Positions 4,102 through 32,590 of a stretch of DNA of 40,081 bases are shown here, in pieces; position 1 is the stretch's first letter, and each line of letters starts with the position of its first letter. A program made the translations under genes and the position numbers. The stretch lies in assembly GCA_964582655.1 (NCBI GenBank), contig CAZOTP010000002.1, positions 1 through 40,081 of the forward strand. Direction: 5' to 3'. The notes under the pieces are model-generated. The model had not been told where the DNA came from. It worked only from the letters and a program-made list of their open reading frames with translations, and did not search any database. The DNA comes from an uncultured Pirellulales bacterium. Its GTDB lineage: Bacteria; Planctomycetota; Phycisphaerae; Sedimentisphaerales; SM23-30.

Positions 4102-4116
4102 GACTGCTCTCCTGAA

Positions 4117-5415: not shown

Positions 5416-5451
5416 GGCATGTTCCTTTGCGAAAAAAGCTTAACATTTACC

Positions 5452-15959: not shown

Positions 15960-15961
15960 CG

Positions 15962-17035
15962 TCAATACTCCTTCCTGACAATCAGGCACAATCCTTCCGG
16001 CCGGAGGCGATTCAGGAGCATCTGAATCTGGTGTTCCGTTTTCAGGTTCATGATAATGACGGCTTTGCCGGCCCGCTGAATCCGCTGAAAGGGTTCGACC
16101 ATATCCTCCAGAGACGGGCCTGTCGGATCCAAAGCCCATTCAATCGCCGCCAGTTCCCGGATTTCCAATAGAGCGTCCAGGTGCTGAACGGCGGAGGAGT
16201 GAAAATGAATCGTAACCGTATCAAAAGCACAGGCGATTTTGCGGTAAGAGGGAACCAAGAGGTTCTGAAAATGTGCCGGGGACAGGATATTGGCGATATC
16301 GGCCTGAGTGACGATGTTTCGTCCGGGTCCCCAGATCCGATATCGATTGATCGAACCGCCATGAAAGGGCGGCAGGACCTCAAATTGAGCCTGGTATAAT
16401 TGAATGACGCAATCCGTCAGCCAGTCGGACATGGCTTATACCACCGCCCCCTTAGCATACAGCCCCAGCCAGACTCTTTCCGCGCCGATCAGGGCTTCGA
16501 GGCAATCCGCCGGTCCTCGCAGGAGAGTTTCGCTGATGAGATATTCCCCCGCCGAGGCATCCACGTTTTTTCGTGTCGCTTCGGCGAGCTTGTCCCGCCA
16601 GAGAGCGTTCAGACCGGCCATCAGTTGATCCAGGTTTTCCCGAACCTTTTCACCCGGCTTGGTCCAGACGGTTTGTGCCCGGCTGGAGAGATACACATTC
16701 GCACCGGTATAACCCTCGCTCCAGGGAATGGGTTCCAGGGGCATTTTCGCGGGGAACAGATCATCGCCCGGCAGAACCGCCGGACGAACTTGCGTATCGG
16801 CCGTGATGACGCGTTCGGTGATATCGGATGCGGCAAAAGGGCCTTCATGCTGAATCCGTAAATTCTGGAGCGGAAACAGGCGGCTCATCGGAGCGCAGCC
16901 GATGAGAGGAGTGCTGCCGGATTTGCGCCGCCAGAACGACGCATGATGAGCAAGAAGGTTTTCCTGTCGCGATGGATCCAGAGAAGTCAGCCAACTCGAT
17001 TCCGGAAAGACAGGGATGGGTCTGTTTGAAATCAT
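15962..17035 (-). pseudogene. URO-D-fold (uroporphyrinogen decarboxylase/MtaA-like) protein interrupted by a single in-frame TAA (16436-16438); alternatively a naturally split two-piece gene
   Basis: ORFs 16436..17035 (199 aa) and 15962..16432 (156 aa) are in the same frame. They are separated only by TAA-GCC-ATG (...KGAVV*AMSDWLTD...). Together they give about 356 aa, the normal URO-D-family length. The break falls in what looks like one continuous domain. Confidence 0.5.
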
Positions 17036-18764: not shown

Positions 18765-19487
18765 TTATTCCTGTTTGTTCCGCATGGTTTTCAGTTCCTG
18801 GGCTAATTCCTCGGGCGTCAGTTTCTGGATATGCTGACGGATCGCCTTTTCCGCCTCCTCGGGATTGCGGTTTTTGAGAGCGTCCAAAATGGGCTGGTGA
18901 CTTCGGCCGAAGACCGATTCGATGGGCCGCAGCGCGTGAAACAGAAGGTCCATCAATTCACTTTGCTCTTTGTAGCAGTAATTCTGCTGCATAATCGGTT
19001 CAAACATGTCCGCCAGCAGCGTATTGCCGCAGCGGCTTACGATATAACGATGAAAAACGACATCGGCGTCCTTGTATCGAGAACGGTCCTCCTCTTGATC
19101 CGCCAGGATCAGTTCCTGATGGATATCCGCCAGTTCGGACAATTCCTGATCCCGGATGCGGGATGCCAGAAGACGAACGGCTTCCACTTCCAGCGCCCGC
19201 CGGACTTCGAAAAGCTGACTCAAATCATTCTGACTGGAATAATCCTTGATGTAAACGCCGGAAGGTCTGTTGCGATGCACGGCCCAGCCTTTCTGCACGA
19301 GTTTTTCCAGGGCTTCCCGCACCGGCGCCTGACTGATGCGCAACTGCCTGGCCAGATCCCGCTGCACCAGTCGCATCCCGGAGCAAAATTTCCCGTCCCG
19401 GATATTGCCAACCACATAGTCATAAACCTGATCGGTCAGTCTGCATTCCATAACCGATTCATCCGAAAGGCGAATCGAACTATTCAT
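18765..19487 (-). CDS. GntR-family transcriptional regulator, FadR/FCD subfamily (second copy)
   Basis: 240 aa with a wHTH (RDLARQLRISQAPVREALEKLVQKGW) and an FCD-like C-terminal domain. It is the first gene of the operon. Confidence 0.9.
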   Translation of the reverse strand: MNSSIRLSDESVMECRLTDQVYDYVVGNIRDGKFCSGMRLVQRDLARQLRISQAPVREALEKLVQKGWAVHRNRPSGVYIKDYSSQNDLSQLFEVRRALEVEAVRLLASRIRDQELSELADIHQELILADQEEDRSRYKDADVVFHRYIVSRCGNTLLADMFEPIMQQNYCYKEQSELMDLLFHALRPIESVFGRSHQPILDALKNRNPEEAEKAIRQHIQKLTPEELAQELKTMRNKQE

Positions 19488-19646: not shown

Positions 19647-20987
19647 TCAAGAATTCGATATCGAGGGAATTCCGTAGGGACCGTCGGGCAGAAGCAGAAG
19701 AGAAGCGCGGGGATTTTCCCGAAGGAGCTTGTCGAGGGCAAGTTGGGTGATTCGCTGCGTGAAGGAGCTGTCGGATTCGCCGGAATTTGGGGAGTGGAGG
19801 GTGGCGGCGTTGGTTTCGGGAATGGTTTTATCGCGCAGACGAGCGGCGCAGGTCATGAGATTTTTTGCGGTGCCTAGTTTTTGGAAGACTTTGGCCCACA
19901 TCTGCACCTGCCACTGTTCGGGAACGAAGGTCCAGCCGGGATCGCGGATCGCGCGGCGGAATTCCTGAGGAGTCATCTGCTGAAGGAGCGGGAGGATTTG
20001 TTTGTATCCCGCCCCACCGATGGGGTCCGGGTCGGTCAGATCGGCGGTGAGAAGGATATGGCCGTTTGGGCAGGCCGCACGACAGGCTTCGTAAGCGGCT
20101 TTGGCGCACTGGTAGTGGTTCACGCCCACATCGCCGGCCTGGGTGAGGACGATGTCGAACTCATGAGGAATTGGGATTCGCACAAAATCACGGATTTGAT
20201 CGATGGCGGCGCGGTGGGCCTGTTCCAGCGAACCGGCGAAGATGCCGGCGAGTTTTTTTTCAGAGTTAATGGTGACATTGACGGTAAAATCGACGCCGGC
20301 CATTTTTGCGATAGCGAGGGATTCTTCATGGCAGGGATTGCCTTCCAAGACAAGCGTGTCGGCGCGGGGGTGGTCGAGGATTTCGGCGGAATGGAAACCC
20401 CATGTGACGGACTGGCCGCAGATGCCGGGGCAGAGGGCTTTTCGGCCTCCGGAGTAGCCGGCCATGAAATGCGGCTCGACCAGGCTGGTGAGGATTTTCA
20501 GATCGGCCTGGCCATAAAATCGATTGATCGCAACCGTCGGATTGCGGGAGGTGCTTCCCAGGGTTATCAGCATGTCGGGATCGTCGGCGATGTGGTTGAG
20601 AATCTCGATGCCGGGGCGGAATGCCGAATCACCGAGCATGCGTCGAAGCTCCTCCTGGGACATGGCGCGATGCGTGCCGCAGGCGATAAGGATGCGGATT
20701 TGAGCGATGCCGCTTTGCCGGAGAATATCCAGGAGTGGAGCAAGAATGCCGTCCGGTTCTTTGTAGGGGACGGGCCGGGTGTTGTCGGAGACCACAATGA
20801 CGGCGGAACAACGTCCGGCGGCGAGCGCGGACAAGGGGGGAGAATCGACGGGATGGTTCAAGGCTTGATGCAATGTTTCCGCGGGATATTCCAGTGGGGG
20901 CATGGGGGACAATCGCAGAATCTGCGCCGAATCGGGGATTTGAAGAGTGAATTCTGATTTGCCATAAGGCCAGGAAATTCTTTTCAT
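19647..20987 (-). CDS. larA: LarA-family nickel-pincer-nucleotide (NPN)-dependent 2-hydroxyacid racemase/epimerase homolog
   Basis: 446 aa from ATG 20985-20987 (AAGGAA lies 5 nt upstream; the track start at 21005 is TTG). It carries VSDNTRP, CGTHR (His106) and PHFMAGYSGGRK...FH, giving His173, Lys183 and His199. This reproduces the H-x9-K-x15-H spacing of the catalytic His, the NPN-tethering Lys and the Ni-ligand His of L. plantarum LarA (His108/His174/Lys184/His200). Confidence 0.85.
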   Translation of the reverse strand: MKRISWPYGKSEFTLQIPDSAQILRLSPMPPLEYPAETLHQALNHPVDSPPLSALAAGRCSAVIVVSDNTRPVPYKEPDGILAPLLDILRQSGIAQIRILIACGTHRAMSQEELRRMLGDSAFRPGIEILNHIADDPDMLITLGSTSRNPTVAINRFYGQADLKILTSLVEPHFMAGYSGGRKALCPGICGQSVTWGFHSAEILDHPRADTLVLEGNPCHEESLAIAKMAGVDFTVNVTINSEKKLAGIFAGSLEQAHRAAIDQIRDFVRIPIPHEFDIVLTQAGDVGVNHYQCAKAAYEACRAACPNGHILLTADLTDPDPIGGAGYKQILPLLQQMTPQEFRRAIRDPGWTFVPEQWQVQMWAKVFQKLGTAKNLMTCAARLRDKTIPETNAATLHSPNSGESDSSFTQRITQLALDKLLRENPRASLLLLPDGPYGIPSISNS

Positions 20988-21009
20988 ACCGATTCCTTCA
21001 AGCAAGCGG

Positions 21010-22566
21010 TCAGGAGAACCAAGTTTGCAGTTGGCTGTAGAGGGACCAGACCCCAGTGATTAAAAATCCGCCGAAGGAAAACCAGAGCAGCACATCCCAG
21101 ATTCGGGCCGGCGTGAGCGGCTGGAGGGTTTTTCGATAGCGGAAATACAAGGCCGCAATTCCCAGCATCGGGAGCATGATCGCCTGGGCGACGCCGCTGG
21201 CGAGGACCATGGCGACGGGTGCCTGAACGAAAATATACGCCACGACAGCAACGAGGGGCCAGACGGCGCTGATCCAGCGGGTCCATCGCTGCCGGGTGCG
21301 CTCCGATTTGTCATGGAGGCCGAACAATCCCAGGCCGTCGGCGACCATTCGGGAATTGCCCGCCGCAGCGACAAAAAACGTGGAATAGAGCACGGCGAAG
21401 GCGCCGAAAAGAAAGACGCCGTCGGACCATTTCCCGAATACGGGAACGTACATCTCTTTGAGGGTACGAATCATATCCGTCTGCTGGGGATTCAGACGGG
21501 CGCGGCCCAGCACGGCGGCGCCGAGCCAATAAAACGCGACGGTGACAAAGGTATAAACGGCCATGGAGGCAAAGGCGTCGATGTGCAGGATTCGCAGCCA
21601 GCCTTTGGCTCGCGCCAGCCAGTCAGGGCTATCCTGGCGCGGGCCGGTGAAGCGGGCGTATCCTTTTTCCAGGCACCAGTAGGGATACATAATCAATTCC
21701 GCAGCTCCCACGCCGATGATGCCGAAGGCACCGAAGGCGGTGGCGATGGGATTGATGGAACTGTCCGGAAGCCTCGGCGGAAGCTGAAACCGCAATCCCT
21801 GAACGAGTTCTGAAGGTTGAATCGCCCATTCGGGTTTGGTTTGCAGGAGCAGCACGGTAAGAACGGTTACGACCGTGAAACCTGCCACGAGAATGGTAGA
21901 GACCGTTTGAATGAGGGTGTAGCGGCCGATATAGAGCAACACCGAAGTGGCGGCGGCGATGAGAACCGCCCAGAGGTAGGGATCGCGAGGTTCCTGGGAA
22001 GAACCATTTCGGACGGCGAGATCGGCGATTTTTTTCTGCCAGACGGGAATGTCCGAGGAATCGGGCCGTTGGGTCCGGAGCAAAGCAAGCTGGACTTTCG
22101 CCTGAATCAGATCGTTTTGCCTGTGGTTGTATTCCTTCCCTTCCTGCGTCAGGGGCCAAGTCATGGCCAAGGTCTGCCCCACCCCGCCGACAATTCCCCC
22201 CTGCTGAGTAATCACCAGCACCGTCATTGCGGCCCAGTACCACAGCAGCCAATTCACTTTCCATCGCGGCCCCGGCAGAGTATTGAGCGCCTCCAGCGGG
22301 GTCTGCGACCAGATAAGGGTATGCCGCCCAAATTCCACCTGCACAAAAACTTTAATGACGCAGCCCAGGACCATGAGCCAGAGCAGCCAGAAACCCGCTT
22401 CGGCTCCCACCTTGGTGGTGGCGATTAATTCCCCGGAGCCAACAATGGAACCGGCGATAATCATGCCTGGACCGAGGCTGAGAAGGATTTGCCCCAGCGA
22501 GCGGGGCGGCGGATGAGGCGACGACTTGTCCATAACCAACGTTCTCCGCGGTCCGGGCGAACACAT
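21010..22566 (-). CDS. Nramp-fold (MntH-like) transporter lacking the canonical DPGN and MPH metal-site motifs
   Basis: LGPGMIIAGSIVGSGELIATTKVGAEAGFWLLW aligns with MntH TM1 ([32 protein letters not shown]), but DPGN is replaced by GSGE. The TM6 region reads GVGAAELIMYPYW instead of GATIMPHVIYLHS. The start may be ATG 22566 or ATG 22533. Confidence 0.7.
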   Translation of the reverse strand: MCSPGPRRTLVMDKSSPHPPPRSLGQILLSLGPGMIIAGSIVGSGELIATTKVGAEAGFWLLWLMVLGCVIKVFVQVEFGRHTLIWSQTPLEALNTLPGPRWKVNWLLWYWAAMTVLVITQQGGIVGGVGQTLAMTWPLTQEGKEYNHRQNDLIQAKVQLALLRTQRPDSSDIPVWQKKIADLAVRNGSSQEPRDPYLWAVLIAAATSVLLYIGRYTLIQTVSTILVAGFTVVTVLTVLLLQTKPEWAIQPSELVQGLRFQLPPRLPDSSINPIATAFGAFGIIGVGAAELIMYPYWCLEKGYARFTGPRQDSPDWLARAKGWLRILHIDAFASMAVYTFVTVAFYWLGAAVLGRARLNPQQTDMIRTLKEMYVPVFGKWSDGVFLFGAFAVLYSTFFVAAAGNSRMVADGLGLFGLHDKSERTRQRWTRWISAVWPLVAVVAYIFVQAPVAMVLASGVAQAIMLPMLGIAALYFRYRKTLQPLTPARIWDVLLWFSFGGFLITGVWSLYSQLQTWFS

Positions 22567-22647: not shown

Positions 22648-22677
22648 TTGACAGTTCCTGTCTGTATAAGGTAGCAT
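22648..22677 (+). promoter_or_regulatory. Candidate promoter TTGACA-N18-TAGCAT for the plus-strand operon
   Basis: Read directly from the sequence. It lies about 125 nt upstream of ATG 22802. The same -10 hexamer (TAGCAT) is found at the tRNA promoter. Confidence 0.35.
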
Positions 22678-22801
22678 AAGCAGTCAGGTTATCGGGATGA
22701 GCCTTCCCGCGGCGGAGGGGGGCCGGAATCTGCGTTGCAGAGGTGCTCCGGCCCTGCCATAGGGATGGGCGATCGCTGAGCCGGAACATTGGACAAACGC
22801 C

Positions 22802-24538
22802 ATGAACGCGACGGAGCGGACAATTCGAAACCGAATTAATCAGGAGAGGGAGCGGCAGCGGAATACGGCGGCGGAGACTCTGCTGGATTGGATTGAAGAA
22901 GGGCAGATCGTGCGGGCCCGGGGGAATCTGATGTTTCACACCGAACCGGAGAAGCTGGACGGGAAACTTCAAAAGCTTCTGCATCGTCTTTTGGAGAATC
23001 CGGAGCGTCTTTCCCGGAATCATCAGCAGCATCTGCTGCGGTTTTTGACCGACCTTGCGGCGGATCTGAAGAGCTTCGTCCCTCACTGGGTATTGAGTCC
23101 GCCTTTGACGGAGGACAATCTTCACCGGATGTTCCTGGCAGTGACTGAAGTGCTGAAACACCTTCTGCCCGTGTGCCGCGAGGCGGCGGCGGAAGTGACC
23201 AGGCAGATTCGGCGGAACACCCTCGCCCGCTTGCAGGCGGAAGGGATCGAGGATGCCTTTCGCGCGGCGGCTTTGACGGAAGAGCTTCTGGGCCATTCTC
23301 TTCTGGATTACATCCGCAATCTGACCGGGGAAATTCAACGGAGCAATTTTCTGAAGGCCTCCCTGGCCCGTAAAAACGGGATCTGCGCCACGGAGCTGGG
23401 AAACGATTACGCCGTTTTCCTGCCGTATGTTCTTCGGCTGGGCGGTTCGTTTGTGACGACCAATCCGGTGCTGATCCCGCTGGCGTGGGAGATCGAGCCG
23501 GAATACTGGAATCCCAGGGTGGATGAGCTGATCCGTTCCGGCTACCGCCGCGAGGAACTGCTGGACATTCAGAAAGATCCGCAAAAACGGGAGACCGCCG
23601 TTGTCGAAATCAATTCGCTGGTGACCATGGCAGTGGTGGAAGACAACTGCCGCCTTCTGCGGGATCTCTTTCTGGTCACCGAAGGCCGGGAAGGATATGT
23701 CAGCCTCCAGGTCAGTCCGAAGAACCACGATCAAACGGACCGGATGGTTTCGGAGGTGATGTCGCTGTATGGGCATCTGGAGCGGCGGCTGGGAGGCGTT
23801 CCCAACGCGGTCTTCAAGCTGCCGGCGACGGCGGCGGGACTGGCGGCGGCGGAGCAGATTACCGCAAAAGGAATCGGGGTTACGATTACCGTTCAGTTCG
23901 GAGTGTTTCAGGCAGCCGAGTTTGCGAAGGTTTTGCAGCGGGGCCATGCCCTGGTATGTTATCTGGCGCTGATGAACGGCCGCATGGCGTTCCCGGTGCG
24001 GGATGAAATGAAGGAAAAACAGGTTTCAGGCGGCGTGGAGGCGGCGCGCTGGGCGGGTGTCGAAGTTGCGCGAAAAGCGTTCCGGAATTTGTACGATGCT
24101 CCCGCACAGGGGGGGCTGGGGATCGATCGCGAAAAAGTGAAACTTCTGATCGCTTCGCTGCGGATTTACGATGACTGGCTGCCCGACATTTCAGAGCTGT
24201 GGGGCTGCCCAGTGATTACGGTGTTTCCCAATGTCCGGCGGGCCTATGATTCGCACCCTCGCGATTTTGACGGGCAGGCGGTGCGGGAGGTTACGCCGGC
24301 GGAGGAGATAAACACCCTGCTGGAAAGCGAAATTTTTCGACAGGCATGGTGGGCACCCGGAGATTCGCCGCGTTCCCGACCGCATCGGCCGCTGAGCCTG
24401 GAACCAAACGATTGTGACGCTGTTTTGCAATGGCCTCCTGTCGCCCAGACGCTTGGGCAGTTTATTTCGCTGTATGACAAAATGGGTGAGATGGTCAAGG
24501 CCCGAGTCCAGGCGCTGGCTGTCGTCGGAAAGGAGTGA
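22802..24538 (+). CDS. Oversized transaldolase-fold (class I aldolase) protein, atypical active site
   Basis: 578 aa. The core carries SFVTTNP (N221), GYVSLQVS (Q303), VFKLPATAAG (K339) and GVTITVQFG (T363). These align with E. coli TalB TTNP(N35), GRISTEVD(E96), KLAST(K132) and LTLLFS(T156). The Q303-K339 spacing (36) and K339-T363 spacing (24) are identical to TalB. There is an additional roughly 190-aa helical N-terminal extension and a roughly 130-aa C-terminal extension. Confidence 0.7.
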   Translation: MNATERTIRNRINQERERQRNTAAETLLDWIEEGQIVRARGNLMFHTEPEKLDGKLQKLLHRLLENPERLSRNHQQHLLRFLTDLAADLKSFVPHWVLSPPLTEDNLHRMFLAVTEVLKHLLPVCREAAAEVTRQIRRNTLARLQAEGIEDAFRAAALTEELLGHSLLDYIRNLTGEIQRSNFLKASLARKNGICATELGNDYAVFLPYVLRLGGSFVTTNPVLIPLAWEIEPEYWNPRVDELIRSGYRREELLDIQKDPQKRETAVVEINSLVTMAVVEDNCRLLRDLFLVTEGREGYVSLQVSPKNHDQTDRMVSEVMSLYGHLERRLGGVPNAVFKLPATAAGLAAAEQITAKGIGVTITVQFGVFQAAEFAKVLQRGHALVCYLALMNGRMAFPVRDEMKEKQVSGGVEAARWAGVEVARKAFRNLYDAPAQGGLGIDREKVKLLIASLRIYDDWLPDISELWGCPVITVFPNVRRAYDSHPRDFDGQAVREVTPAEEINTLLESEIFRQAWWAPGDSPRSRPHRPLSLEPNDCDAVLQWPPVAQTLGQFISLYDKMGEMVKARVQALAVVGKE

Positions 24539-24540
24539 AC

Positions 24541-25812
24541 ATGTCGGAGTTTGAAACCGCACAACGTCTTTTGAAACAATTCAAAGGGGAAACCTACTGT
24601 TTTGGGAGCGGCGTGTTGTCGAAAGCGGGAGCCATCGCGAAGGCCCTGGGATCGAAGGCGATTCTCATTTACGCGGATTTTGCCGGCGCGGAAGCGTATC
24701 GGAAAACTATTCAACACTCCCTGCAGCAGGCGGGAGTCGAGCTGAAAGCGTCCCTCCCCGGGGCGCGGCCCAACGCCCCCCGCGAGGATGTGGTTCGGAT
24801 TCTGGGCGATTTGAATGCTCACCACCCGGAAGTTGTCATCAGCCTGGGAGGCGGCAGCACGATTGACGCGGTGAAAGCGGCCACGGTACTGCACGCACTG
24901 GGAGGCGATATCGAAGCATATTTCGGCGTGGGAAAAGTTACGGAGGCTCTACAAGCCGCGGGAAAAACCCTCCTGCCCCATATCGCGATTCAAACGGCCG
25001 CCAGCTCCGCGGCCCATCTGACGAAGTACTCGAATATCACCGATCTGGCGACGGGGCAGAAGAAGCTCATTGTCGATGATGCGATTGTTCCGGCGCGGCC
25101 TGTTTTTGATTACCAGGTCACGCGGAACACGCCGCCTGAGTTGACGGCGGACGGCGCGCTGGACGGCATCGCGCACTGCGTGGAGGTTTTCTACGGAGCG
25201 GTCGGCAAGCCGTATTACTCCCAGATGGAAGAAATCACGTCGGCGGCGCTGAGTCTGGTATTGAACCATCTTCCCCGGGTGATGCAGAATCCCCGCGATG
25301 AGACGAGCCGCGAGGCGCTGTGCCTGGCGACCGATCTGGGGGGATACGCAATCATGCTGGGCGGCACCAACGGCGGACATCTGACCAGTTTTTCTCTGGT
25401 GGATATCTTGTCCCACGGGCGGGCCTGCGCCATTATGAATCCGTATTACACGGTCTTTTTCGCCCCGGCGATCGAGAAACCGCTGCGGGTGATCGGAGAG
25501 GCGTATCGCAAGGCGGGGTATCTGAAACAGGATCCGGAGAAATTGACCGGCCGAGAGCTGGGCACGGCAGTCGCCGAAGGGATGTTCGCGTTTGCCCGGA
25601 ACATCGGATTTCCCACGCGGCTTTCCGAGGTGAAAGGCTTTACGGAGGAGCATATCCGGCGGGCGCTGACGGCGGCGAAAAATCCGCAGTTGAAGATGAA
25701 ACTGGAAAACATGCCGGTGCCTCTGTCGGCGGAGATGATTGACGGATATATGAAACCGGTCCTGGAAGGGGCACGGGACGGGAATCTGGCGATGATTCGA
25801 AATGTTTCCTGA
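24541..25812 (+). CDS. Iron-containing (group III) alcohol dehydrogenase family oxidoreductase
   Basis: Contains the GGGSTIDAVKAA motif and has the family size. ATG 24541 lies 5 nt after AAGGAG. The track start at 24535 is a GTG overlapping the upstream stop. Confidence 0.85.
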   Translation: MSEFETAQRLLKQFKGETYCFGSGVLSKAGAIAKALGSKAILIYADFAGAEAYRKTIQHSLQQAGVELKASLPGARPNAPREDVVRILGDLNAHHPEVVISLGGGSTIDAVKAATVLHALGGDIEAYFGVGKVTEALQAAGKTLLPHIAIQTAASSAAHLTKYSNITDLATGQKKLIVDDAIVPARPVFDYQVTRNTPPELTADGALDGIAHCVEVFYGAVGKPYYSQMEEITSAALSLVLNHLPRVMQNPRDETSREALCLATDLGGYAIMLGGTNGGHLTSFSLVDILSHGRACAIMNPYYTVFFAPAIEKPLRVIGEAYRKAGYLKQDPEKLTGRELGTAVAEGMFAFARNIGFPTRLSEVKGFTEEHIRRALTAAKNPQLKMKLENMPVPLSAEMIDGYMKPVLEGARDGNLAMIRNVS

Positions 25813-25824
25813 GGAATCCGCGGC

Positions 25825-27573
25825 ATGACAGCGAAGACATTTGGCCAATTGCGAATCGATCCGGCGAAAAATCCGGCGGTGCTGGATACGGCAACGTGGG
25901 AGGAAGCGGCGGTGCGGGACAGAATCCAGGCGGCGGGGCCGGAATGGGGTAATCTGCTGGCGGATAGTCTTGCCGGCGGAAGGGATTGCCCCCCGCATTC
26001 CGATATTGCGGTGTACAGCGGTTCGGCAGGCCGGCAGGGAAGCAGCGATTTTGTCATGCTGGGCTTTTCCGATTCCCAGTATGCGTTCGCGGAGGCGGCG
26101 GGCCAGCGAGCTTCGGGGCTGTTTTCCAGTCCTCTGGCAACGCTCTCGCTGACGGGCGGCAGGCAACTGCTTGTGTATCCGGCGACGGCAGCGAATGCAG
26201 ATTGCTATGTGCGCAGCATCCAGCCGGACAAGGGGCCCCGGGCATTGGGAAGCGAGCCTCGAATCGGAATCGGGACGCGGATGTCCACATCGGTATGGCC
26301 GGCGATTTATCCGGCGATGCAGAAATACCGGTTCGCGGCAAACGCGATTCAGAATTCCATGCGGGAGCTGAACTGCCTGAACAATCTTCTGGCGGGAAAC
26401 CCGTCGGCGATGAATTACCTGTTCAGTTTCGGGGCCATCGAGGAGGGGCACACCGGCAGCACCTTCGAAGGGCTTTGGCTCTCCGGCGTGATCGAAGCGT
26501 TGAAATCCGACACGAAACCCCGGTACGGCGCGGATGCCGACCATATTCAGGTGAAGCGCGGGACGGCGGGACTGGAACGGGCGCAGAACGTCATTCAGGC
26601 GGCGCGATATTATACCTTTTACACAATGGATGTTTCCGATATCCTGAATTATCAGGCGATGCTGCCAACCGCTCCGCCGCCGAAAACGGATTATCCGGCA
26701 GACTGCATTCCCGATGCCGCGATGCGCCGCGAAATCATCCGGTATCACACCGGGCAGGGAGGCATCGCCGGAATTTCCTATGCGCCCGGGGAAGCGCTTC
26801 TTTCGAAACTCATCGGCAAATACTGGCATGCGCTGAACGCGATGGAGCGGCTGTCGGAGTATCTGGATAAGCTGAAACAGGGGATTCCGTACGATCTGGA
26901 ATTCAGCATCGACGAGAATCCGCCCGAGGTGAAGACTTGCCAGTGCATCACCGGCGAGGCGGAGCTGATTTTTGTGATACTGGAGAGCCGCCGCCGCCAC
27001 ATTCCCATTACCCATGTGGCGCCGAATTTCGGGATTGAAAAAGGGGTGGACTACCGCTGTCCGGACGGTCTTTCGGGGCTGGAAAAACGGATTGAACGCA
27101 TGCAGCGAATCGCCCTGGAGTCGGGGCTGATGCTTGATTTCCATTCCGGCGATGATTTGTCCAGCCAGACCCGGAAAGTGATCGGACGGGCGACGAGGGG
27201 GCATAACCATTTCAAAATCTCACCCATGCTGCAGGCGCTGTTTGCCGATGTCCTGTATGAAGTGCAACCGGACGCCTTTTGCTCCTGGTGGCAGGCGACG
27301 CGGCGCTATGTGGAGCAGAAGGCCCGCGACGGCTCCGAGTTTGCCACAGAATGCCTGCGTGAAACGGAAGGCACAGGCCATGCCCCCTCTCCGCAGGACC
27401 GGCTGTTTCATTACTACCATTTCGCGGCGGTGGGGATTCGCGACGCCCAGGGACAGTTCCTGAATCGCGAATTGTTTTATACATTATCGCCGGCATTTTA
27501 TGATCGGTATCGCCAGGCGGCGGAAAACCTGCTGGGCGAGGTAGCGGAAGATGTGCTTTCTCCAAACCGATAG
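25825..27573 (+). CDS. UxaE-like (tagaturonate/fructuronate epimerase family) TIM-barrel protein, tentative
   Basis: 582 aa. RIGIGTRMS..., ANAIQNSMREL... and YGADADHIQVKRG resemble the conserved blocks I recall for the UxaE family. This is not verified by any search. Confidence 0.45.
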   Translation: MTAKTFGQLRIDPAKNPAVLDTATWEEAAVRDRIQAAGPEWGNLLADSLAGGRDCPPHSDIAVYSGSAGRQGSSDFVMLGFSDSQYAFAEAAGQRASGLFSSPLATLSLTGGRQLLVYPATAANADCYVRSIQPDKGPRALGSEPRIGIGTRMSTSVWPAIYPAMQKYRFAANAIQNSMRELNCLNNLLAGNPSAMNYLFSFGAIEEGHTGSTFEGLWLSGVIEALKSDTKPRYGADADHIQVKRGTAGLERAQNVIQAARYYTFYTMDVSDILNYQAMLPTAPPPKTDYPADCIPDAAMRREIIRYHTGQGGIAGISYAPGEALLSKLIGKYWHALNAMERLSEYLDKLKQGIPYDLEFSIDENPPEVKTCQCITGEAELIFVILESRRRHIPITHVAPNFGIEKGVDYRCPDGLSGLEKRIERMQRIALESGLMLDFHSGDDLSSQTRKVIGRATRGHNHFKISPMLQALFADVLYEVQPDAFCSWWQATRRYVEQKARDGSEFATECLRETEGTGHAPSPQDRLFHYYHFAAVGIRDAQGQFLNRELFYTLSPAFYDRYRQAAENLLGEVAEDVLSPNR

Positions 27574-27581
27574 AGGCGCCT

Positions 27582-28403
27582 ATGGAACATCGACTGGAAA
27601 ACAAAGTGGCGATTGTCACCGGCGCCGCCCGGGGAATCGGGCGGGGCGCAGCGATCCATCTGGCGAGGTTGGGCGCCAAAGTCGCGGCAGCGGACCGGGA
27701 TGTAACTTCCGCCGGGCAAACCGCCGAGCAGATTCAACAGCAGGGCGGCGAGGCGATGGCCGTTGCGCTCGATCTGGCGTCAGTGCCCAGCATTCGGAGC
27801 ATGGTCGAGGCGGTCGTCCGGCAATGGCAGAAAATCGACATTCTCGTCAACGCTGCGGGCGTGATTCAGGCCAAGCCCCTGCTGGAGGTGACCGAAGCCG
27901 ACTGGGATCCGATTATCGATGTGAACCAAAAGGGGCTGGTGTTTTGCATTCAGGCGGTCGCGGCCCAGATGATTCGGCAGATTCCGGCGGACGTCCGGGC
28001 GGCGGGCCGGGCACCGCACAGCTACGGAAAAATCGTCAACTTTTCCTCCGTTTCGGGCCGCCGCGGCAGGCCCCTGCAGGTCCACTACGCCGCCAGCAAG
28101 GCCGCGGTAATCAACATTACCCAGTCGGCGGCGCTGGCACTGGCACCCTACCATATTAATGTGAACGGCATCGCGCCGGGGATGGTTCTCACCCCGATGT
28201 GGGATCAGAACGCCGCGGAAAAAGGGAAAATCTCCGGGCTCGATCCGCAGGAAGAAATTCGCCAGTTCATCGAAAAAATCCCCCTTCAGCGGCCCGGCAC
28301 GGTCGAGGAGTTGGCCCAAGTGACCGCTTTTTTCTGCTCGGAGGATTCCGACTACATCACCGGACAGACTCTCAACGTGGACGGCGGCTTCGAAATGGAT
28401 TGA
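27582..28403 (+). CDS. Short-chain dehydrogenase/reductase (SDR)
   Basis: Contains TGAARGIGRG (TGxxxGxG), the NAAG motif and the catalytic S...YAASK. Confidence 0.9.
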   Translation: MEHRLENKVAIVTGAARGIGRGAAIHLARLGAKVAAADRDVTSAGQTAEQIQQQGGEAMAVALDLASVPSIRSMVEAVVRQWQKIDILVNAAGVIQAKPLLEVTEADWDPIIDVNQKGLVFCIQAVAAQMIRQIPADVRAAGRAPHSYGKIVNFSSVSGRRGRPLQVHYAASKAAVINITQSAALALAPYHINVNGIAPGMVLTPMWDQNAAEKGKISGLDPQEEIRQFIEKIPLQRPGTVEELAQVTAFFCSEDSDYITGQTLNVDGGFEMD

Positions 28404-28427
28404 TCTCCGAATCATCAGGAGAATTCC

Positions 28428-29435
28428 TTGGCGCATTCCAGAATCATCCTGTGCCTCAGTGCGATCATGGCTTTGACGCTGGCCGGATGCCGGAAGAACG
28501 GCGATTCCCAGGACGTCGGCGCCCCGTCCCGCGTGATTCTGAAAATCGCCCATGTTCTGCCCGTCAACGAGCCGATTCACCAGGAACTTCTGGTGATGGC
28601 CCGGCAGATCGAACAGCGATCCGAAGGCACGCTCGAAATCCAGATTTACCCCAATTCCGAGCTGGGAAGCAACAAGGACAATCTGGAACAGATTCTCCGC
28701 GGCGCCAACCTTATCACTGTCGCCGATCCGGGATATGTGGGGGATTATCTTCCCGATTACACGATTATGAACGGCCCGTATCTATACCGCGGTTTTGATG
28801 ATATTCAGAAACTCGCCCAATCCGAATGGCAGGAAACGATGAAACGGCGGGCCGAGGAAAAAGGAATCAAAATCCTGGCGATGGACTGGTATTTCGGCCC
28901 GCGGCATTTTTTGAGCGACAAGCCCATCCGTACCCCTGCGGATCTGAAAAACCTCAAGGTCCGCGTTCCTCCCAACGCAATCTGGATCGAAACCATTCGG
29001 GCGATGGGCGGTCTGCCCACCCTCATGCAGTGGAGCGAAGTCTATACCGGACTGGCGCAGGGCGTGGTCGATGCGGTGGAGGCGCCTCTGTCTTCCCTCT
29101 ACGGCACAAGGCTGTACGAAGTCAAAAAACACATCTCTCTCACCGCGCACTTCCACGCCATCGCCGGGCTGCAGATTTCAAAACGGGTATTCGATTCCCT
29201 GACCGCCCGCCAGCAGACGATTTTGCTGGAAGAAGTCGATGCCGCCGGGCGGCGCGTCAGCCGGGAGGTTCAGGAGAGCGAAACGCGGTGGCGAAGCAAA
29301 CTGGAACAGCAGGGCGTCCAGTTTCACGAAGCGGATGCAGAGGCGTTTCGTACCGCCTGCCGGGAAGTCTATGACAAATTTCCGGACTGGTCGGCCGGCC
29401 TTTATGAGCAGGTGCAGGCCGCGTTAAAACCATGA
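28428..29435 (+). CDS. dctP: TRAP transporter solute-binding protein (DctP family), lipoprotein
   Basis: TTG start 6 nt after AGGAG. Signal peptide plus lipobox (LTLAGC). The layout is DctP-like (KIAHVLPVNEPIHQ..., NSELGSNKDNLEQ...). Confidence 0.85.
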   Translation: MAHSRIILCLSAIMALTLAGCRKNGDSQDVGAPSRVILKIAHVLPVNEPIHQELLVMARQIEQRSEGTLEIQIYPNSELGSNKDNLEQILRGANLITVADPGYVGDYLPDYTIMNGPYLYRGFDDIQKLAQSEWQETMKRRAEEKGIKILAMDWYFGPRHFLSDKPIRTPADLKNLKVRVPPNAIWIETIRAMGGLPTLMQWSEVYTGLAQGVVDAVEAPLSSLYGTRLYEVKKHISLTAHFHAIAGLQISKRVFDSLTARQQTILLEEVDAAGRRVSREVQESETRWRSKLEQQGVQFHEADAEAFRTACREVYDKFPDWSAGLYEQVQAALKP

Positions 29436-29974
29436 CAAACCCCCAATCCATTTCTGACTGCCGCGATGCAAATTCCCCCCCAAGAGGCAGCACCCTCGTA
29501 CGGGGGCTTCGGAATCTGGAAGAACTGCTCAGCGGCACCGCTTTGGCAATTGTGATCGGTGTGATTATCGTCAACGTGCTAATTCGGTTCTGCTTCGGCG
29601 ATTCGCTGGCATGGGCGGAGGAGATCGCGGCGATGGGATTCGCGTGGACGGTCTTTGTCGGCGCCGCGGCATGTTACAAACGAAAGCTGCATCTGGGAAT
29701 CGATCTTCTCACCCGCCTGCTGCCGGAAAGGTGGAATCGGCGGCTATCCCTGCTCACCGGCGTGCTGCTGCTGCTCACCCACGCTTATCTGACGTATTTG
29801 AGCACGGTATTTTCCTGCTCCGCGTGGAACAAACCCACCGCCGTCCTCCGTATTCCCTACACCTTCGTGGATCTTTCCGCCGCCGTCGGCTTCGCCCTGA
29901 TGACGCTCCACTCCCTGCGCTATCTGGCCGGATGGCTCCATGCCAATCCTCCGGCGGAAAGGCCGCCCGCATGA
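29432..29974 (+). CDS. dctQ: TRAP transporter small permease (DctQ family)
   Basis: 180 aa with 4 TM segments, positioned between the P and M components. The ATG overlaps the DctP stop (ATGA). Confidence 0.8.
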   Translation: MTNPQSISDCRDANSPPRGSTLVRGLRNLEELLSGTALAIVIGVIIVNVLIRFCFGDSLAWAEEIAAMGFAWTVFVGAAACYKRKLHLGIDLLTRLLPERWNRRLSLLTGVLLLLTHAYLTYLSTVFSCSAWNKPTAVLRIPYTFVDLSAAVGFALMTLHSLRYLAGWLHANPPAERPPA

Positions 29975-30011
29975 ACAAAACTACCCGGCGCATCCGTACG
30001 GAGGGGATCTG

Positions 30012-31295
30012 ATGGAATATCTTCCAATCGCCCTTCTGTTTGTCCTGTTTACGCTGGAAATCCCGGTCGCCTTCGCCCTGATCCTGGCGACCCTGAGCTA
30101 TTTTCTCTGGATCAACACGACCCTGCCGGCGGATATGATTTTTCAGCGCATGATCGCCACGGCAGAATCGTTTCCGCTGCTGGCCGTTCCCTTCTTTATC
30201 ACCGCCGGGACCGTGATGAACTATGCCGGAATCTCTTCACGGCTGATGGCCGTCGCGGAAGTCCTGATCGGTTACCAGCGGGGCGGGCTGGCCCAGGCGA
30301 ATATCCTGCTGAGCACCCTGATGGGCGGAGTCTCCGGTTCGGCCAACGCCGACGCCGCCATGGTCAGCAAAATCCTCGTCCCCCAGATGATCCAGCGGGG
30401 TTACAGCCCGGCCTTCTCGGCCGCCCTGACTGCCTCTGCCGCCGTCATCACCCCGATTATCCCGCCCGGCATCGCGCTGATTCTCTATGCCTTCATGGCC
30501 AACGTCTCCGTCGGAAAAATGTTTATCGCCGGCTATGTGCCCGGCATCCTGATGTGCCTGTTTCTGATGGCCGCCGTAAGCTGGATTTCCCGAAGACGCC
30601 GATACGCTCCCATCCGTCCCGCCCGCGCCGGCGCAAAGGAAATTCTTCACCAGCTCAAAGATTCGTTCTGGGCGATGGTACTGCCCCTGGGAATCATCAT
30701 GGGCCTTCGCTTCGGCGTGTTCACTCCCACCGAAGCGGGCGCCATCGCGATACTGTATTCCGCTCTGGTGGGATTTCTGGTCTATCGTCAATTGAGGCTT
30801 CGCGATTTTCCGAAAATCTTTTTGGAATCCGTTCTGGGAACCAGCGCCGTGATGCTCATCATCTGCGCCGCGTCCGCCTTTGGCTACTACATGAGCTGGG
30901 AACGGCTTCCCAACCAGGTCAGCGAACTGTTGCTGGGACTCACGCGGCAGCCCCTGGTGCTCATGGGATTAATTAATCTGCTGCTGCTCTTTTTCGGAAT
31001 GTTTATCGAGGGGACAGCGCTTCTGATAATCCTGACCCCCCTGCTCGTGCCGGCGGTCAGCGGGCTGGGAATCGATCTGGTCTATTTCGGAATCGTGATG
31101 GTCGTCAATCTCACCCTCGGCGGCGTCACGCCCCCCTTCGGCACGCTGATGTTCCTCACCTGCTCCATCGTCGGCATCCGCACCAGCGATTTTATTCGTG
31201 AAGTTCTTCCGTTTCTGCTGGCTCTGCTTGCCGTTCTGCTGCTGATTACATATATTCCTTCCCTGGTAACATGCCTGCCCCACTGGCTGATGTAG
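30012..31295 (+). CDS. dctM: TRAP transporter large permease (DctM family)
   Basis: 427 aa from ATG 30012 (MEYLPIALLFVLFTLEIPVAFAL...), a typical DctM sequence. The longer start in the track lies inside dctQ. Confidence 0.9.
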   Translation: MEYLPIALLFVLFTLEIPVAFALILATLSYFLWINTTLPADMIFQRMIATAESFPLLAVPFFITAGTVMNYAGISSRLMAVAEVLIGYQRGGLAQANILLSTLMGGVSGSANADAAMVSKILVPQMIQRGYSPAFSAALTASAAVITPIIPPGIALILYAFMANVSVGKMFIAGYVPGILMCLFLMAAVSWISRRRRYAPIRPARAGAKEILHQLKDSFWAMVLPLGIIMGLRFGVFTPTEAGAIAILYSALVGFLVYRQLRLRDFPKIFLESVLGTSAVMLIICAASAFGYYMSWERLPNQVSELLLGLTRQPLVLMGLINLLLLFFGMFIEGTALLIILTPLLVPAVSGLGIDLVYFGIVMVVNLTLGGVTPPFGTLMFLTCSIVGIRTSDFIREVLPFLLALLAVLLLITYIPSLVTCLPHWLM

Positions 31296-31303
31296 GAGAA
31301 TCC

Positions 31304-32590
31304 ATGAATTCGCGGGAACGTGTACTCCAAGCGGTCAATTTCCAGAACCCCGACCGGATTCCCATCGATCTGGGCGCGCTTCGCGCTTCCGGCATCAATG
31401 CCGTCGTCTATGATCGACTCAAACAGCGCATGGGCAGCCGCACCCCCACGCGCATCCATGATGCCATGCAGATTCTCGCCGACGTGGAAATGGACGTACT
31501 TGACCGCCTCCTCGGGGATGTCGTTCCCCTGGAAGAGATCGATTTTCCCTGGTTCGGCAAAGACGCCCGCCCCGTCGAAAAAACGCTGTTTTGCGGCCAA
31601 CAGGTGCTGTTTCCTCCCGGTACGATCATCCGGGAGCAGCCCGACGGCTCCTGGGTGCTCTGCCGCCCCGCCACCGGGGAACCGTATGCGCTGATGCCGA
31701 AAAACGGCTTTTACTTCGATGCTCTCCGGCCTACCATGTCCGGGAAAAAAATCGACCCGAACCTCTTTCAGCCCAACCGCACGGTATCCGATGAAATTCT
31801 GGAGTTCATGCGGCAGCGCGCCGATTTTTTATATCGAAACACCGACAAGGCGATTCTCGGCTGGGGAGGCAATGTTTCCATGCTGGGATTGAGTTTCCTG
31901 CTATCGGACAATATCACGCAGGGTTCGCTGGATGAATGGCTCTGCATGCTGATGGTCGAAAAGCAGACCGCCCATGAAATGATGAGCCGTTTCGTGGACG
32001 CCGCGATTTGCAAGCTCAAGCTTTATCACCAGGCCGTCGGCGACCGCTGCTTCGCCTGGGGCATCGCCAGCGACGACGCCGGCACCCAGAAAGGCGAACT
32101 GATTGCCCCCGATCTTTTCGCCGAAATGATCAAGCCCCACTACAAGCGCCTCTGTGACTGGGTCCACCAAAACACCAACTGGAAAACCTTCCTCCACTCC
32201 TGCGGATCCATTTTTCATTTCATCGAACACTGGATCGACGCCGGCATCGATATTCTCAATCCCGTCCAGATTTCCGCCGCCAACATGCAGCCTGAAAACC
32301 TCATGGCCCGCTACGGCGGAAAAATCGTCTTCTGGGGCGGCGGCTGCGACACCCAGCATGTCCTTCCCAACGGCACGCCGCGGGAAATCGCCGAACACGT
32401 CCAACACAATATCCAAATCTTCGGCAAGGGCCCCGGCGGCTATGTCTTCAACCAGGTCCACAACATCCAGCAAAACGTCCCCATCGAAAACGTGGAAGCC
32501 TTGTTTGCCGCCGCGCATGAATTTGCGGGCATGCAGAATTCGAAGGCATCCTCCGATTCAATGCATCCGTCCGGGAAGCGTTTGAAATGA
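31304..32590 (+). CDS. URO-D-fold (uroporphyrinogen decarboxylase/MT2 methyltransferase-like) protein
   Basis: 428 aa from ATG 31304 (GGAGAA upstream). The N-terminus RERVLQAVNFQNPDRIPIDLG is typical of URO-D-like proteins. LHSCG...GGGCD resembles the H-x-C...C zinc motif of MT2-type enzymes. It lies immediately downstream of dctM. Confidence 0.75.
   Translation: MNSRERVLQAVNFQNPDRIPIDLGALRASGINAVVYDRLKQRMGSRTPTRIHDAMQILADVEMDVLDRLLGDVVPLEEIDFPWFGKDARPVEKTLFCGQQVLFPPGTIIREQPDGSWVLCRPATGEPYALMPKNGFYFDALRPTMSGKKIDPNLFQPNRTVSDEILEFMRQRADFLYRNTDKAILGWGGNVSMLGLSFLLSDNITQGSLDEWLCMLMVEKQTAHEMMSRFVDAAICKLKLYHQAVGDRCFAWGIASDDAGTQKGELIAPDLFAEMIKPHYKRLCDWVHQNTNWKTFLHSCGSIFHFIEHWIDAGIDILNPVQISAANMQPENLMARYGGKIVFWGGGCDTQHVLPNGTPREIAEHVQHNIQIFGKGPGGYVFNQVHNIQQNVPIENVEALFAAAHEFAGMQNSKASSDSMHPSGKRLK

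Follow-up and report, generated by a model that had tools for sequence, protein, structure and literature searches.

A conserved module of transaldolase-like, UxaE-like and dehydrogenase genes in uncultured bacteria as candidate core of an anionic-sugar catabolic island

What is the function of eight closely spaced genes in which a transaldolase (TAL)-like protein and an iron-containing alcohol dehydrogenase (Fe-ADH) are encoded next to a UxaE-like epimerase, a short-chain dehydrogenase/reductase (SDR), a tripartite ATP-independent periplasmic (TRAP) transporter and a protein resembling uroporphyrinogen decarboxylase (URO-D)? The genes lie in a 40,081-nt stretch of DNA from an uncultured Pirellulales bacterium (assembly GCA_964582655.1, contig CAZOTP010000002.1, positions 1 to 40,081 of the forward strand), hereafter the window. 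An earlier, sequence-only reading had taken them as one operon for an undescribed acidic-sugar pathway, fed by the TRAP transporter and capped by the URO-D-like protein. We find that four of the eight genes belong to a rare module conserved in uncultured bacteria, and that the TRAP system and the URO-D-like gene are window-specific additions to it. In our view the module is likely to be a conserved catabolic unit, as yet uncharacterised, in which an epimerase, a TAL-type cleavage enzyme and an alcohol dehydrogenase act in sequence. That the region forms part of an anionic-sugar catabolic island, most likely for a hexonate or keto-uronate, with the module as its uncharacterised core, is suggested by homology and is a reading that we hold with confidence just under even.

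The eight genes, with coordinates and junction distances taken from the longest open reading frames (ORFs), are as follows.
22802-24538, plus strand: TAL-like protein, 578 aa (Pfam TAL_FSA)
24535-25812, plus strand: Fe-ADH family protein, 425 aa (Pfam Fe-ADH plus ADH_Fe_C)
25825-27573, plus strand: UxaE-family epimerase homologue, 582 aa (Pfam UxaE)
27582-28403, plus strand: sorbitol/L-iditol 2-dehydrogenase-like SDR, 273 aa (Pfam SDR)
28428-29435, plus strand: TRAP solute-binding protein DctP, 335 aa (Pfam DctP, 252 bits)
29432-29974, plus strand: TRAP small membrane subunit DctQ, 180 aa (Pfam DctQ, 100 bits)
29940-31295, plus strand: TRAP large membrane subunit DctM, 451 aa (Pfam DctM, 362 bits; TIGR00786, 426 bits)
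31271-32590, plus strand: URO-D-like protein, 439 aa (Pfam URO-D, 74 bits)

The eight co-oriented ORFs span 22802-32590, and each neighbouring pair overlaps or is at most 24 nt apart (junctions in order -4, +12, +8, +24, -4, -35 and -25 nt); the URO-D-like gene has a probable start near 31304, which gives 428 aa. The sequence-only reading had described eight plus-strand genes with gaps of 37 nt or less, in agreement with the largest measured gap of 24 nt, and its domain assignments are all matched by Pfam (TAL_FSA, Fe-ADH, UxaE, SDR, DctP, DctQ, DctM and URO-D). Its treatment of the eight genes as one unit does not extend to related loci: TRAP genes are present in only some of them, and the 439-aa URO-D-like gene in none.

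The module and its distribution

A profile search of the 578-aa TAL-like family against 1.84 billion cluster representatives returned only 94 representatives at E<=1e-30; full-length members are 570-630 aa long and come from metagenomes and metagenome-assembled genomes (MAGs) only. A scan of one genome per species, with neighbours identified from gene calls and from tblastn/blastp searches with the window proteins, yielded 32 TAL-like loci, all in MAGs. Their hosts are Pirellulales and other Planctomycetota, Sedimentisphaerales, Spirochaetota, Anaerolineae, Clostridia and one genome labelled Bacteroides sp. In loci with enough flank to read gene order, the UxaE-like gene is directly downstream of the TAL-like gene in 28/32 and an SDR is found in 29/32; the Clostridia loci have the TAL-like gene without a UxaE-like gene. 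Partner genes, counted in the loci that are flanked by 8 kb or more on each side, recur as follows.
IolM/Tdh-like zinc-dependent alcohol dehydrogenase (Zn-ADH): 10/17 loci
IolO-like AP_endonuc_2 protein (5-keto-gluconate epimerase homologue): 9/17 loci
LarA-type protein: 9/17 loci
Split transketolase: 8-9/17 loci
Fe-ADH: 6/17 loci
TRAP system: 5/17 loci
Nramp-like protein: 4/17 loci
Glycerate kinase: 4/17 loci
439-aa URO-D-like protein: 0/17 loci

The conserved core is composed of the TAL-like, UxaE-like and SDR genes, and frequent partners are Fe-ADH, LarA, glycerate kinase, the split transketolase, a GntR/FCD regulator and an Nramp-like protein. In four loci of planctomycete type (L003, L005, L008 and L023) a divergent Nramp-like gene is followed by TAL-like, UxaE-like, SDR, Fe-ADH, LarA and glycerate kinase genes, the last three contiguous. 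The LarA-type proteins of L001, L003 and L049 pass the NCBIfam LarA cutoff of 460 with 493-500 bits, and the glycerate kinases match TIGR00045 at 409 bits; homologues of the window Fe-ADH occur at 60-66% identity in 11 related loci. The closest relatives of the window locus (L006 and L007, with proteins 74-83% identical) have the Nramp-like gene followed by TAL-like, UxaE-like and SDR genes, and no TRAP genes adjoin the module on these contigs, both of which stop about 1.3 kb beyond the SDR. A GntR/FCD gene is directly upstream of the TAL-like gene in L001, L002, L004, L014 and L019-L022. Acid-sugar dehydratase genes (MR_MLE) immediately precede the module in three loci (L025, L026 and L029) and, in L005, lie a short way upstream of it.

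We also identified gene fusions that join the TAL-like protein to its partners, one to Fe-ADH (P0091, 1000 aa) and two to the UxaE-like protein (P0383, 1136 aa; P0402, 1084 aa). The conserved gene order and the fusions point to consecutive steps for the SDR and UxaE-like enzymes, the TAL-like enzyme and Fe-ADH. The order of carbon-carbon cleavage followed by Fe-ADH reduction, already put forward from the sequence, gains backing from the same fusions and from the gene order in 28/32 loci.

Searches with the UxaE-like protein in place of the TAL-like one added two loci, which agree with the others. In L048 (Ca. Vecturithrix granuli) the genes run GntR/FCD, Zn-ADH, TRAP, a short 350-aa TAL, full-length transketolase, Zn-ADH, UxaE-like, a CUT2-type ATP-binding cassette (ABC) system and SDR, and in L049 (Phycisphaerales) they run Nramp-like, UxaE-like, SDR, Fe-ADH and LarA. 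Several variants of the module accompany these. In spirochaetes (L001, L004, L014, L019, L020, L022 and others) an IolO-like AP_endonuc_2 protein, an IolM/Tdh-like Zn-ADH and a second, FabG-like SDR stand in place of Fe-ADH and glycerate kinase. An AP_endonuc_2::TAL fusion is also present (P0476, 655 aa), and L002 has an OtnC-like class II aldolase gene.

The TAL-like protein is matched by Pfam TAL_FSA (PF00923) at residues 218-506 only, with 79 bits (cutoff 27), and reaches 63 bits on NCBIfam transaldolase models, for which the cutoff is 367. Its AlphaFold2 (AF2) model (pLDDT 89, pTM 0.89) opens with an entirely helical N-terminal region, about 195 aa long, that is followed by a TAL (alpha/beta)8 barrel, and its top 37 Foldseek matches (E<=3e-7) all belong to the TAL family, including one Prochlorococcus 'aldolase' (TMt <=0.74). 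Residues were mapped through a profile alignment to Neisseria gonorrhoeae TAL and an hhalign alignment to Escherichia coli TalB. K339, invariant in 19 homologues, aligns with the Schiff-base Lys of TalB (K132) and with that of N. gonorrhoeae TAL. R394, S452 and R454, invariant in the family, match the phosphate-site residues R181, S226 and R228 of TalB; T363 and T361 correspond to the active-site residues T156 and N154, and M391 to F178 (Tyr, Y131, in FSA). Because the Lys and the anion-site residues are kept and the catalytic Glu of TalB is replaced by Gln, the protein is plausibly a Schiff-base C-C lyase or transferase with an anion pocket, and not a standard transaldolase. The short TAL of L048 (5744-6796) carries the same Gln-for-Glu signature without the N-terminal helical region and adjoins the TRAP and full-length transketolase genes, near the UxaE-like gene. 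A further TAL subfamily of about 460 aa is present among the cluster representatives.

The UxaE-like protein is matched by Pfam UxaE (PF16257) with 68 bits (cutoff 27.1), over model positions 120-390 only. Its AF2 model (pLDDT 87) aligns over the whole length (513-570 columns) with the tagatose 4-epimerases 9LHW and 9KCS and with Cohnella UxaE (6IL9), at TMt 0.68-0.73 and 16-21% identity, and an invariant His/Asp/Glu set (D237, D239, H240, H397, H440 and others) is compatible with a metal site. By homology and predicted fold, this is a distant, long subfamily of class II aldolase-like ketose/keto-uronate 4-epimerases.

The two remaining module proteins have predicted roles. The SDR reaches 257 bits on the NCBIfam L-iditol 2-dehydrogenase model, under its cutoff of 338, and its best PDB matches are a diacetyl reductase/butanediol dehydrogenase chimera (3WYE) and then, among the best, the sorbitol dehydrogenases 4E6P, 1K2W and 6PEI; we propose that it serves as an (omega-1)-dehydrogenase yielding a 2-ketose (a 5-keto-aldonate). 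Fe-ADH satisfies no NCBIfam equivalog cutoff (ErcA, sulfoacetaldehyde reductase and lactaldehyde reductase are best, at about 100 bits) and is proposed as the reductase of the aldehyde fragment.

A proposed route and the alternatives to it

We hypothesize a route from fructuronate through tartronate semialdehyde to glycerate; this specific chemistry is tentative, and we hold it less firmly than the existence of the island. The Nramp-like carrier would take up the substrate, with the appended TRAP system as a further entry route in this organism. The SDR would oxidise the penultimate carbinol of an aldonate (e.g. L-galactonate or L-gulonate), and the resulting 5-keto-aldonate would be D-tagaturonate or D-fructuronate; the UxaE-like enzyme would epimerise the ketose at C4, turning tagaturonate into fructuronate with its 3S,4R configuration. 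The TAL-like enzyme, which probably splits a six-carbon sugar acid without prior phosphorylation, would form a Schiff base at K339 and cleave C3-C4, with the substrate carboxylate sitting in the phosphate pocket (R394, S452, R454), much as sulfofructose transaldolase accommodates the sulfonate. An aldose phosphate such as glyceraldehyde 3-phosphate (GAP) would receive the dihydroxyacetone unit, giving fructose 6-phosphate; transfer would be favoured over release because the TAL-like protein has no Tyr at the FSA position. Tartronate semialdehyde would be released and reduced by Fe-ADH to glycerate, with the L-isomer expected from D-fructuronate. The LarA-type racemase and the glycerate kinase of related loci would then route glycerate into glycolysis. 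LarAIp, a LarA of a planctomycete, is an effective racemase of L-glycerate (PMC11851776).

A UxaE-type 4-epimerase fits such a scheme because TAL and FSA enzymes need a 3S,4R 2-ketose with an anionic tail, which such an epimerase produces (D-fructuronate) out of D-tagaturonate. An SDR of the sorbitol-dehydrogenase-like kind is able to produce 5-keto-aldonates out of aldonates. The scheme would account for the contiguous Fe-ADH, LarA and glycerate kinase genes of related loci, as well as for the recurring TRAPs, FCD regulators, acid-sugar dehydratases and IolO-like homologues. An anionic or acidic substrate, as first surmised, stays the best guess, given the varied TRAPs and GntR/FCD regulators and the neighbouring genes for acid-sugar dehydratases, 2-hydroxyacid racemases and glycerate kinase. 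A search of the accessible literature found no published keto-uronate transaldolase route and no description of this gene combination, in line with the first impression that the mixture matches no known pathway. In its fullest form the hypothesis becomes doubtful: the module would be a kinase-free 'urono-transaldolase' pathway, built on the first TAL-family enzyme to take a carboxylated ketose (D-fructuronate or 5-keto-hexonate), with a UxaE-type 4-epimerase feeding it and with tartronate semialdehyde passing to L-glycerate (Fe-ADH), LarA racemisation and glycerate kinase.

Several observations weigh against the keto-uronate route. The proposed steps rest wholly on homology and gene context. 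Position 303 of the TAL-like protein, at the catalytic Glu E96 of TalB, is an invariant Gln (SLQV vs S[L/T]EV), so the Glu expected of a true transaldolase is missing; the E96Q change reportedly weakens TalB, and the reaction of the TAL-like enzyme could differ accordingly. A phosphorylated substrate would be just as good a fit for the enzyme's fully conserved phosphate site. Neutral polyols and ketoses are also among the substrates of the SDR and UxaE families, and CUT2 ABC systems are found in L002 and L048. L049 carries the module without the TAL-like gene, and the recurrent split transketolase has no place in the scheme. The window lacks a glycerate kinase, and its LarA-like protein is a divergent paralogue that shares only about 30% identity with its LarA-type counterparts in related loci. 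No uronate isomerase is encoded nearby, so the entry substrate is not given by the locus. The remark that no kinase is present stands for the whole window and fails for the homologous operons of L003, L005, L008 and L023, which end with the glycerate kinase.

The alternative that survives best, though we consider it improbable, is a Thermotoga-type hexuronate/inositol branch. Here the UxaE-like enzyme would convert tagaturonate to fructuronate and the SDR, as UxaD, would yield D-mannonate; a LarA homologue acting as GntE would convert mannonate to gluconate, or a ManD-type dehydratase would lead to 2-keto-3-deoxygluconate (KDG), leaving the TAL-like protein and Fe-ADH as peripheral pentose-phosphate or redox helpers. 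UxaE, an SDR (UxaD) and a LarA homologue (GntE) are the trio described in Thermotoga maritima (PMC7583248; PMC5673643). The window also has a ManD/galactonate-dehydratase-like gene, MR_MLE genes are near the module in the four loci named above, and IolO-like and IolM-like genes recur. Against this, the SDR resembles sorbitol dehydrogenases, and 1VL8, which we take to be T. maritima UxaD, is absent from its 60 best PDB matches. The LarA proteins are LarA/malate-racemase-like and give only 19 bits on the hexonate-epimerase model; the TAL-like protein is the most constant neighbour and is fused to the UxaE-like protein and to Fe-ADH; and the operon ends with a glycerate kinase, not a gluconate or KDG kinase. 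No UxaC, KdgK or KdgA is encoded in the cluster, and the Pfam domains of this canonical hexuronate set are likewise missing among the 35 window ORFs, where the sole hexuronate-type candidates are the ManD/galactonate-dehydratase-like, DHDPS-family and HpcH-family genes. The locus accordingly has no gene-for-gene match to a characterised hexuronate locus, as had been anticipated.

A neutral polyol or rare-ketose route, quite improbable in our estimate, would have the SDR oxidise galactitol or sorbitol to tagatose or fructose and the UxaE-like enzyme act as a tagatose 4-epimerase; the TAL-like enzyme would take dihydroxyacetone from free fructose, and Fe-ADH would reduce glyceraldehyde. Sorbitol/L-iditol dehydrogenases among the best SDR matches, free-sugar tagatose 4-epimerases among the closest solved UxaE-family structures and CUT2-type sugar ABC transporters beside the module in L002 and L048 all speak for such a route, as does the Gln at the TalB Glu96 position, which is reminiscent of FSA-type enzymes. 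It is harder to reconcile with the TRAPs of differing lineages in nine loci (eight TAL-like loci and L048), with the recurring GntR/FCD regulators and with the invariant anion-binding Arg/Ser/Arg of the TAL-like family, and it gives no role to the LarA-type racemase, glycerate kinase or acid-sugar dehydratases.

Transport, regulation and neighbouring genes

The genes for DctP, DctQ and DctM are adjacent and overlapping and make up a full TRAP set. The closest solved relatives of DctP are 4PFB (FN1258, about 46% identical by alignment reading), which binds glycerol phosphate, and 4N6K, which binds diglycerol phosphate, followed by 4O8M and 4OVT. DctP keeps both conserved Arg positions, and the same Arg hold the phosphate in 4PFB and 4N6K. 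The statement that TRAP systems import carboxylates or sulfonates is too narrow here because these nearest solved relatives bind phosphate esters. We presume 4O8M and 4OVT to be aldonate binders, and no ligand is assigned from any of these comparisons. The DctPs of related loci are only 24-35% identical to that of the window, and they too were set aside as a guide to the ligand, since they match only SiaP-type structures, at about 30% identity, or none. The closest metagenomic DctP (53%, L046) is encoded amid CoA-transferase and hydratase genes. 'TRAP-fed' does not describe the pathway in general: the two closest loci have an Nramp-like gene and no adjoining TRAP, and L002 and L048 also have CUT2 ABC systems.

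The DctP relatives bear on a further alternative, very improbable in our view, in which the TRAP system imports an intact organophosphate or sulfosugar derivative and the TAL-like enzyme acts on an ordinary sugar phosphate or, as in transaldolase- or transketolase-dependent sulfoglycolysis, on sulfofructose; the missing kinase would then be explained because the substrate arrives with its phosphate or sulfonate. Besides the phosphate-ester ligands of the two nearest solved DctP relatives, this idea can draw on the fully conserved TAL phosphate site, the nearby split transketolase, a weak Fe-ADH match to sulfoacetaldehyde reductase (SarD, 105 bits) and the sole NCBIfam match of a fucose-isomerase-like protein in the window, sulfoquinovose isomerase SftI (55 bits). 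Both of these scores are far under the cutoffs of 700, the window TRAP is not conserved with the module, the sulfofructose transaldolase BmSF-TAL is a distant match to the TAL-like protein (about 30 bits), and no sulfonate exporter or desulfonation genes were seen among the window ORFs. No described sulfoglycolysis route is known to include a UxaE-like enzyme, LarA or glycerate kinase. Membership in sulfoglycolysis was rejected, all scores being far under the cutoffs, and a myo-inositol (IolM/N/O) origin was not adopted, the IolM-like and IolO-like proteins being under cutoff and neither IolG nor IolN being seen.

The URO-D-like protein is matched by URO-D (PF01208) over its C-terminal half only (74 bits, residues 220-418, model positions 162-346), with 23 bits for HemE and 30-42 bits for MtaA-type models against cutoffs of 235-400, and with no sequence match in the PDB. 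Its family is very large, about 70% identical across phyla, has an invariant H298-x-C300...C348 and is encoded beside GH42, GH141, GH95, FucIso_C-like, GFO_IDH and PFL-like (glycyl-radical enzyme) genes in glycan-utilisation loci. The annotation of this family as uroporphyrinogen decarboxylase is probably wrong. No 439-aa homologue was found in any of 39 related TAL-like loci, and a core role in the pathway was rejected on this count and on that of the family's own neighbourhoods, which are unrelated glycan loci; for the same reason 'capped by URO-D' is not a property of the pathway. We read the gene as a passenger linked to the TRAP genes, cotranscribed here and outside the conserved module. 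URO-D paralogues often accompany the family (L041, L042 and L045), and FucIso_C-like genes adjoin the URO-D-like genes in L041 and L045.

To the left of the eight-gene run we identified the following features, several of which were overlooked in the sequence-only reading: the divergent LarA-like, Nramp-like and GntR genes, and the split transketolase that recurs with the module.
22648-22677, plus strand: promoter-like site TTGACA-18-TAGCAT (consensus scan, 10/12 matches)
21010-22566, minus strand: Nramp-like membrane protein, 518 aa (Pfam Nramp, 38 bits)
19647-21005, minus strand: LarA-family 2-hydroxyacid racemase/epimerase homologue, 452 aa (Pfam Lar_N, 171 bits)
18765-19487, minus strand: GntR/FCD regulator (Pfam GntR plus FCD)
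15962-17035, minus strand: homologue of a 358-aa protein (28% identity over 337 colinear residues to L001:15690-16766)
14185-16139, minus strand: split transketolase, N- and C-terminal halves (Pfam Transketolase_N, Transket_pyr and Transketolase_C)

The Nramp-like, LarA-like and GntR/FCD genes diverge from the same intergenic region as the eight-gene run. The stretch first singled out for study begins at 22648, the start of the promoter-like site, which lies about 125 nt 5' of the TAL-like gene and both of whose hexamers are conserved in the L006/L007 intergenic region. The GntR/FCD gene has its own promoter-like site (19591-19564, 11/12 positions) and is separated by a 160-nt gap from the LarA-like gene; its product is probably a repressor that controls the divergent operons. 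The assertion that no regulator is present is thus correct inside 22648-32590 only, the GntR/FCD gene being 3.3 kb upstream. An imperfect inverted repeat (CCTGTCTG...CAGTCAGG, 22655-22692, plus strand) flanks the -10 hexamer of the promoter-like site and could be a candidate operator for this regulator; an 11-nt segment missing from L006 and L007 contains part of the repeat.

The Nramp-like protein is 63-83% identical, in the same divergent position, to proteins of L003, L005-L009, L017 and L023. It passes the NCBIfam cutoff for an Nramp divalent metal transporter and has GSGE and MYPY at the places of DPGN (TM1) and MPH (TM6), which we take to be the canonical Nramp metal-binding motifs. An organic-solute carrier is more likely than a metal transporter on these residues, and the protein may be considered a candidate substrate transporter of the module. 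The window LarA-like protein, a relative of the nickel-pincer nucleotide racemases, has 285 bits on the NCBIfam LarA model, under the cutoff of 460, and a weak LarA_C match.

The split transketolase, whose homologues (43-60% identical) adjoin the TAL-like module in some 16 related loci, is a probable accessory of the same metabolic island. The 358-aa protein follows the SDR in spirochaete loci; its window homologue is broken by an in-frame TAA at 16438-16436 and is therefore a pseudogene or an assembly error, selenocysteine having been rejected for a codon that is TAA and not TGA. URO-D signals in the 358-aa family are sub-threshold (3/11 members, best E 2.6e-4), and hhalign gives a probability of 15% for its relation to the 439-aa URO-D-like family.

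Further genes surround these. The gene for the fucose-isomerase-like protein and a DHDPS-family gene follow the split transketolase (11889-14182, minus strand), and an SSF symporter gene is on the minus strand to the left of the GntR/FCD gene. Left of all these is another, separate operon for acid sugars under GntR/FCD control (959-11674, minus strand), which encodes an HpcH-type aldolase, an Iso_dh protein (tartrate/isocitrate dehydrogenase-like), an aldehyde dehydrogenase, a D-2-hydroxyacid dehydrogenase, a ManD/galactonate-dehydratase-like enzyme, an FG-GAP protein, a 530-aa protein without a Pfam domain and an SSF symporter. The ManD-type dehydratase noted previously elsewhere in the window is this enolase-superfamily gene (5452-6645), about 16 kb off, whose product scores 281 bits on both NCBIfam models, under both cutoffs. 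On the other side, a convergent SNF2 helicase gene lies 3' of the eight-gene run.

Significance and comparison with known systems

If the proposed route is true, it would be a new branch of sugar-acid catabolism that carries the 'anion mimics phosphate' transaldolase logic of sulfoglycolysis to carboxylated sugars, and a third hexuronate/hexonate strategy beside the isomerase/dehydratase and oxidative routes. It would apparently be confined to uncultured Planctomycetota, Spirochaetota, Anaerolineae and relatives, and a module that occurs solely in uncultured, polysaccharide-degrading lineages would acquire a function. LarA-type racemases would gain a role in glycerate racemisation, the long UxaE-like subfamily would gain a function, and the 4-epimerase and the Q-type TAL could become biocatalysts for rare sugars and sugar acids. 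The automatic labels 'transaldolase', 'lactate racemase', 'Nramp metal transporter' and 'uroporphyrinogen decarboxylase' are all probably misleading for these genes; the LarA proteins of related loci, for example, would be named lactate racemase by annotation pipelines.

The closest parallel in logic is the transaldolase-dependent sulfoglycolysis pathway (SftI, SftT and sulfolactaldehyde reductase/dehydrogenase). There too a TAL-fold enzyme cleaves an unphosphorylated ketose whose terminal anion mimics phosphate, and GAP accepts the C3 unit. Reduction or oxidation of the anionic C3 aldehyde follows, and the route requires no sugar kinase. The TAL-like protein of the module is nevertheless distant from BmSF-TAL, with its extra N-terminal helices of about 195 aa and Gln for the catalytic Glu. 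The partners of the module are UxaE-like, SDR, LarA and glycerate kinase genes rather than SftI and a sulfonate exporter, and the proposed anion is a carboxylate.

The hexuronate/inositol network of T. maritima (UxaE, UxaD, GntE, IolM and IolO) likewise combines a UxaE-family epimerase with a neighbouring SDR and an enzyme of the LarA family; related loci contain homologues resembling IolO and IolM, and D-tagaturonate and D-fructuronate are likely shared intermediates. In contrast, the UxaE-like protein of the module is 16-21% identical to solved UxaE-family members, its SDR is sorbitol-dehydrogenase-like and not UxaD-like, and its LarA is lactate/malate-racemase-like and not GntE-like. The TAL-like protein, Fe-ADH and glycerate kinase would replace the end-game of dehydratase, KDG kinase and aldolase.

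The TAL barrel and the Schiff-base Lys are common to TalB, FSA and the TAL-like protein, as are the active-site positions Asn/Thr and Arg/Ser/Arg. The TAL-like protein differs in length (578 aa vs 220-350 aa) and in residues, TalB E96 being Gln (as in FSA), F178 Met and N154 Thr. It is encoded in a catabolic operon, and not as a housekeeping gene of the pentose-phosphate pathway.

Finally, the glucarate/galactarate and glyoxylate pathways (GarR/GlxR and GarK/GlxK) end, as proposed here, in the conversion of tartronate semialdehyde to glycerate and phosphoglycerate, with a glycerate kinase of the same family. The reductase of the module is an Fe-ADH and not a beta-hydroxyacid dehydrogenase, and a LarA-type protein stands between reductase and kinase. 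The semialdehyde would arise here from TAL-type cleavage, in place of the KDG-type aldolase or glyoxylate carboligase of those pathways.

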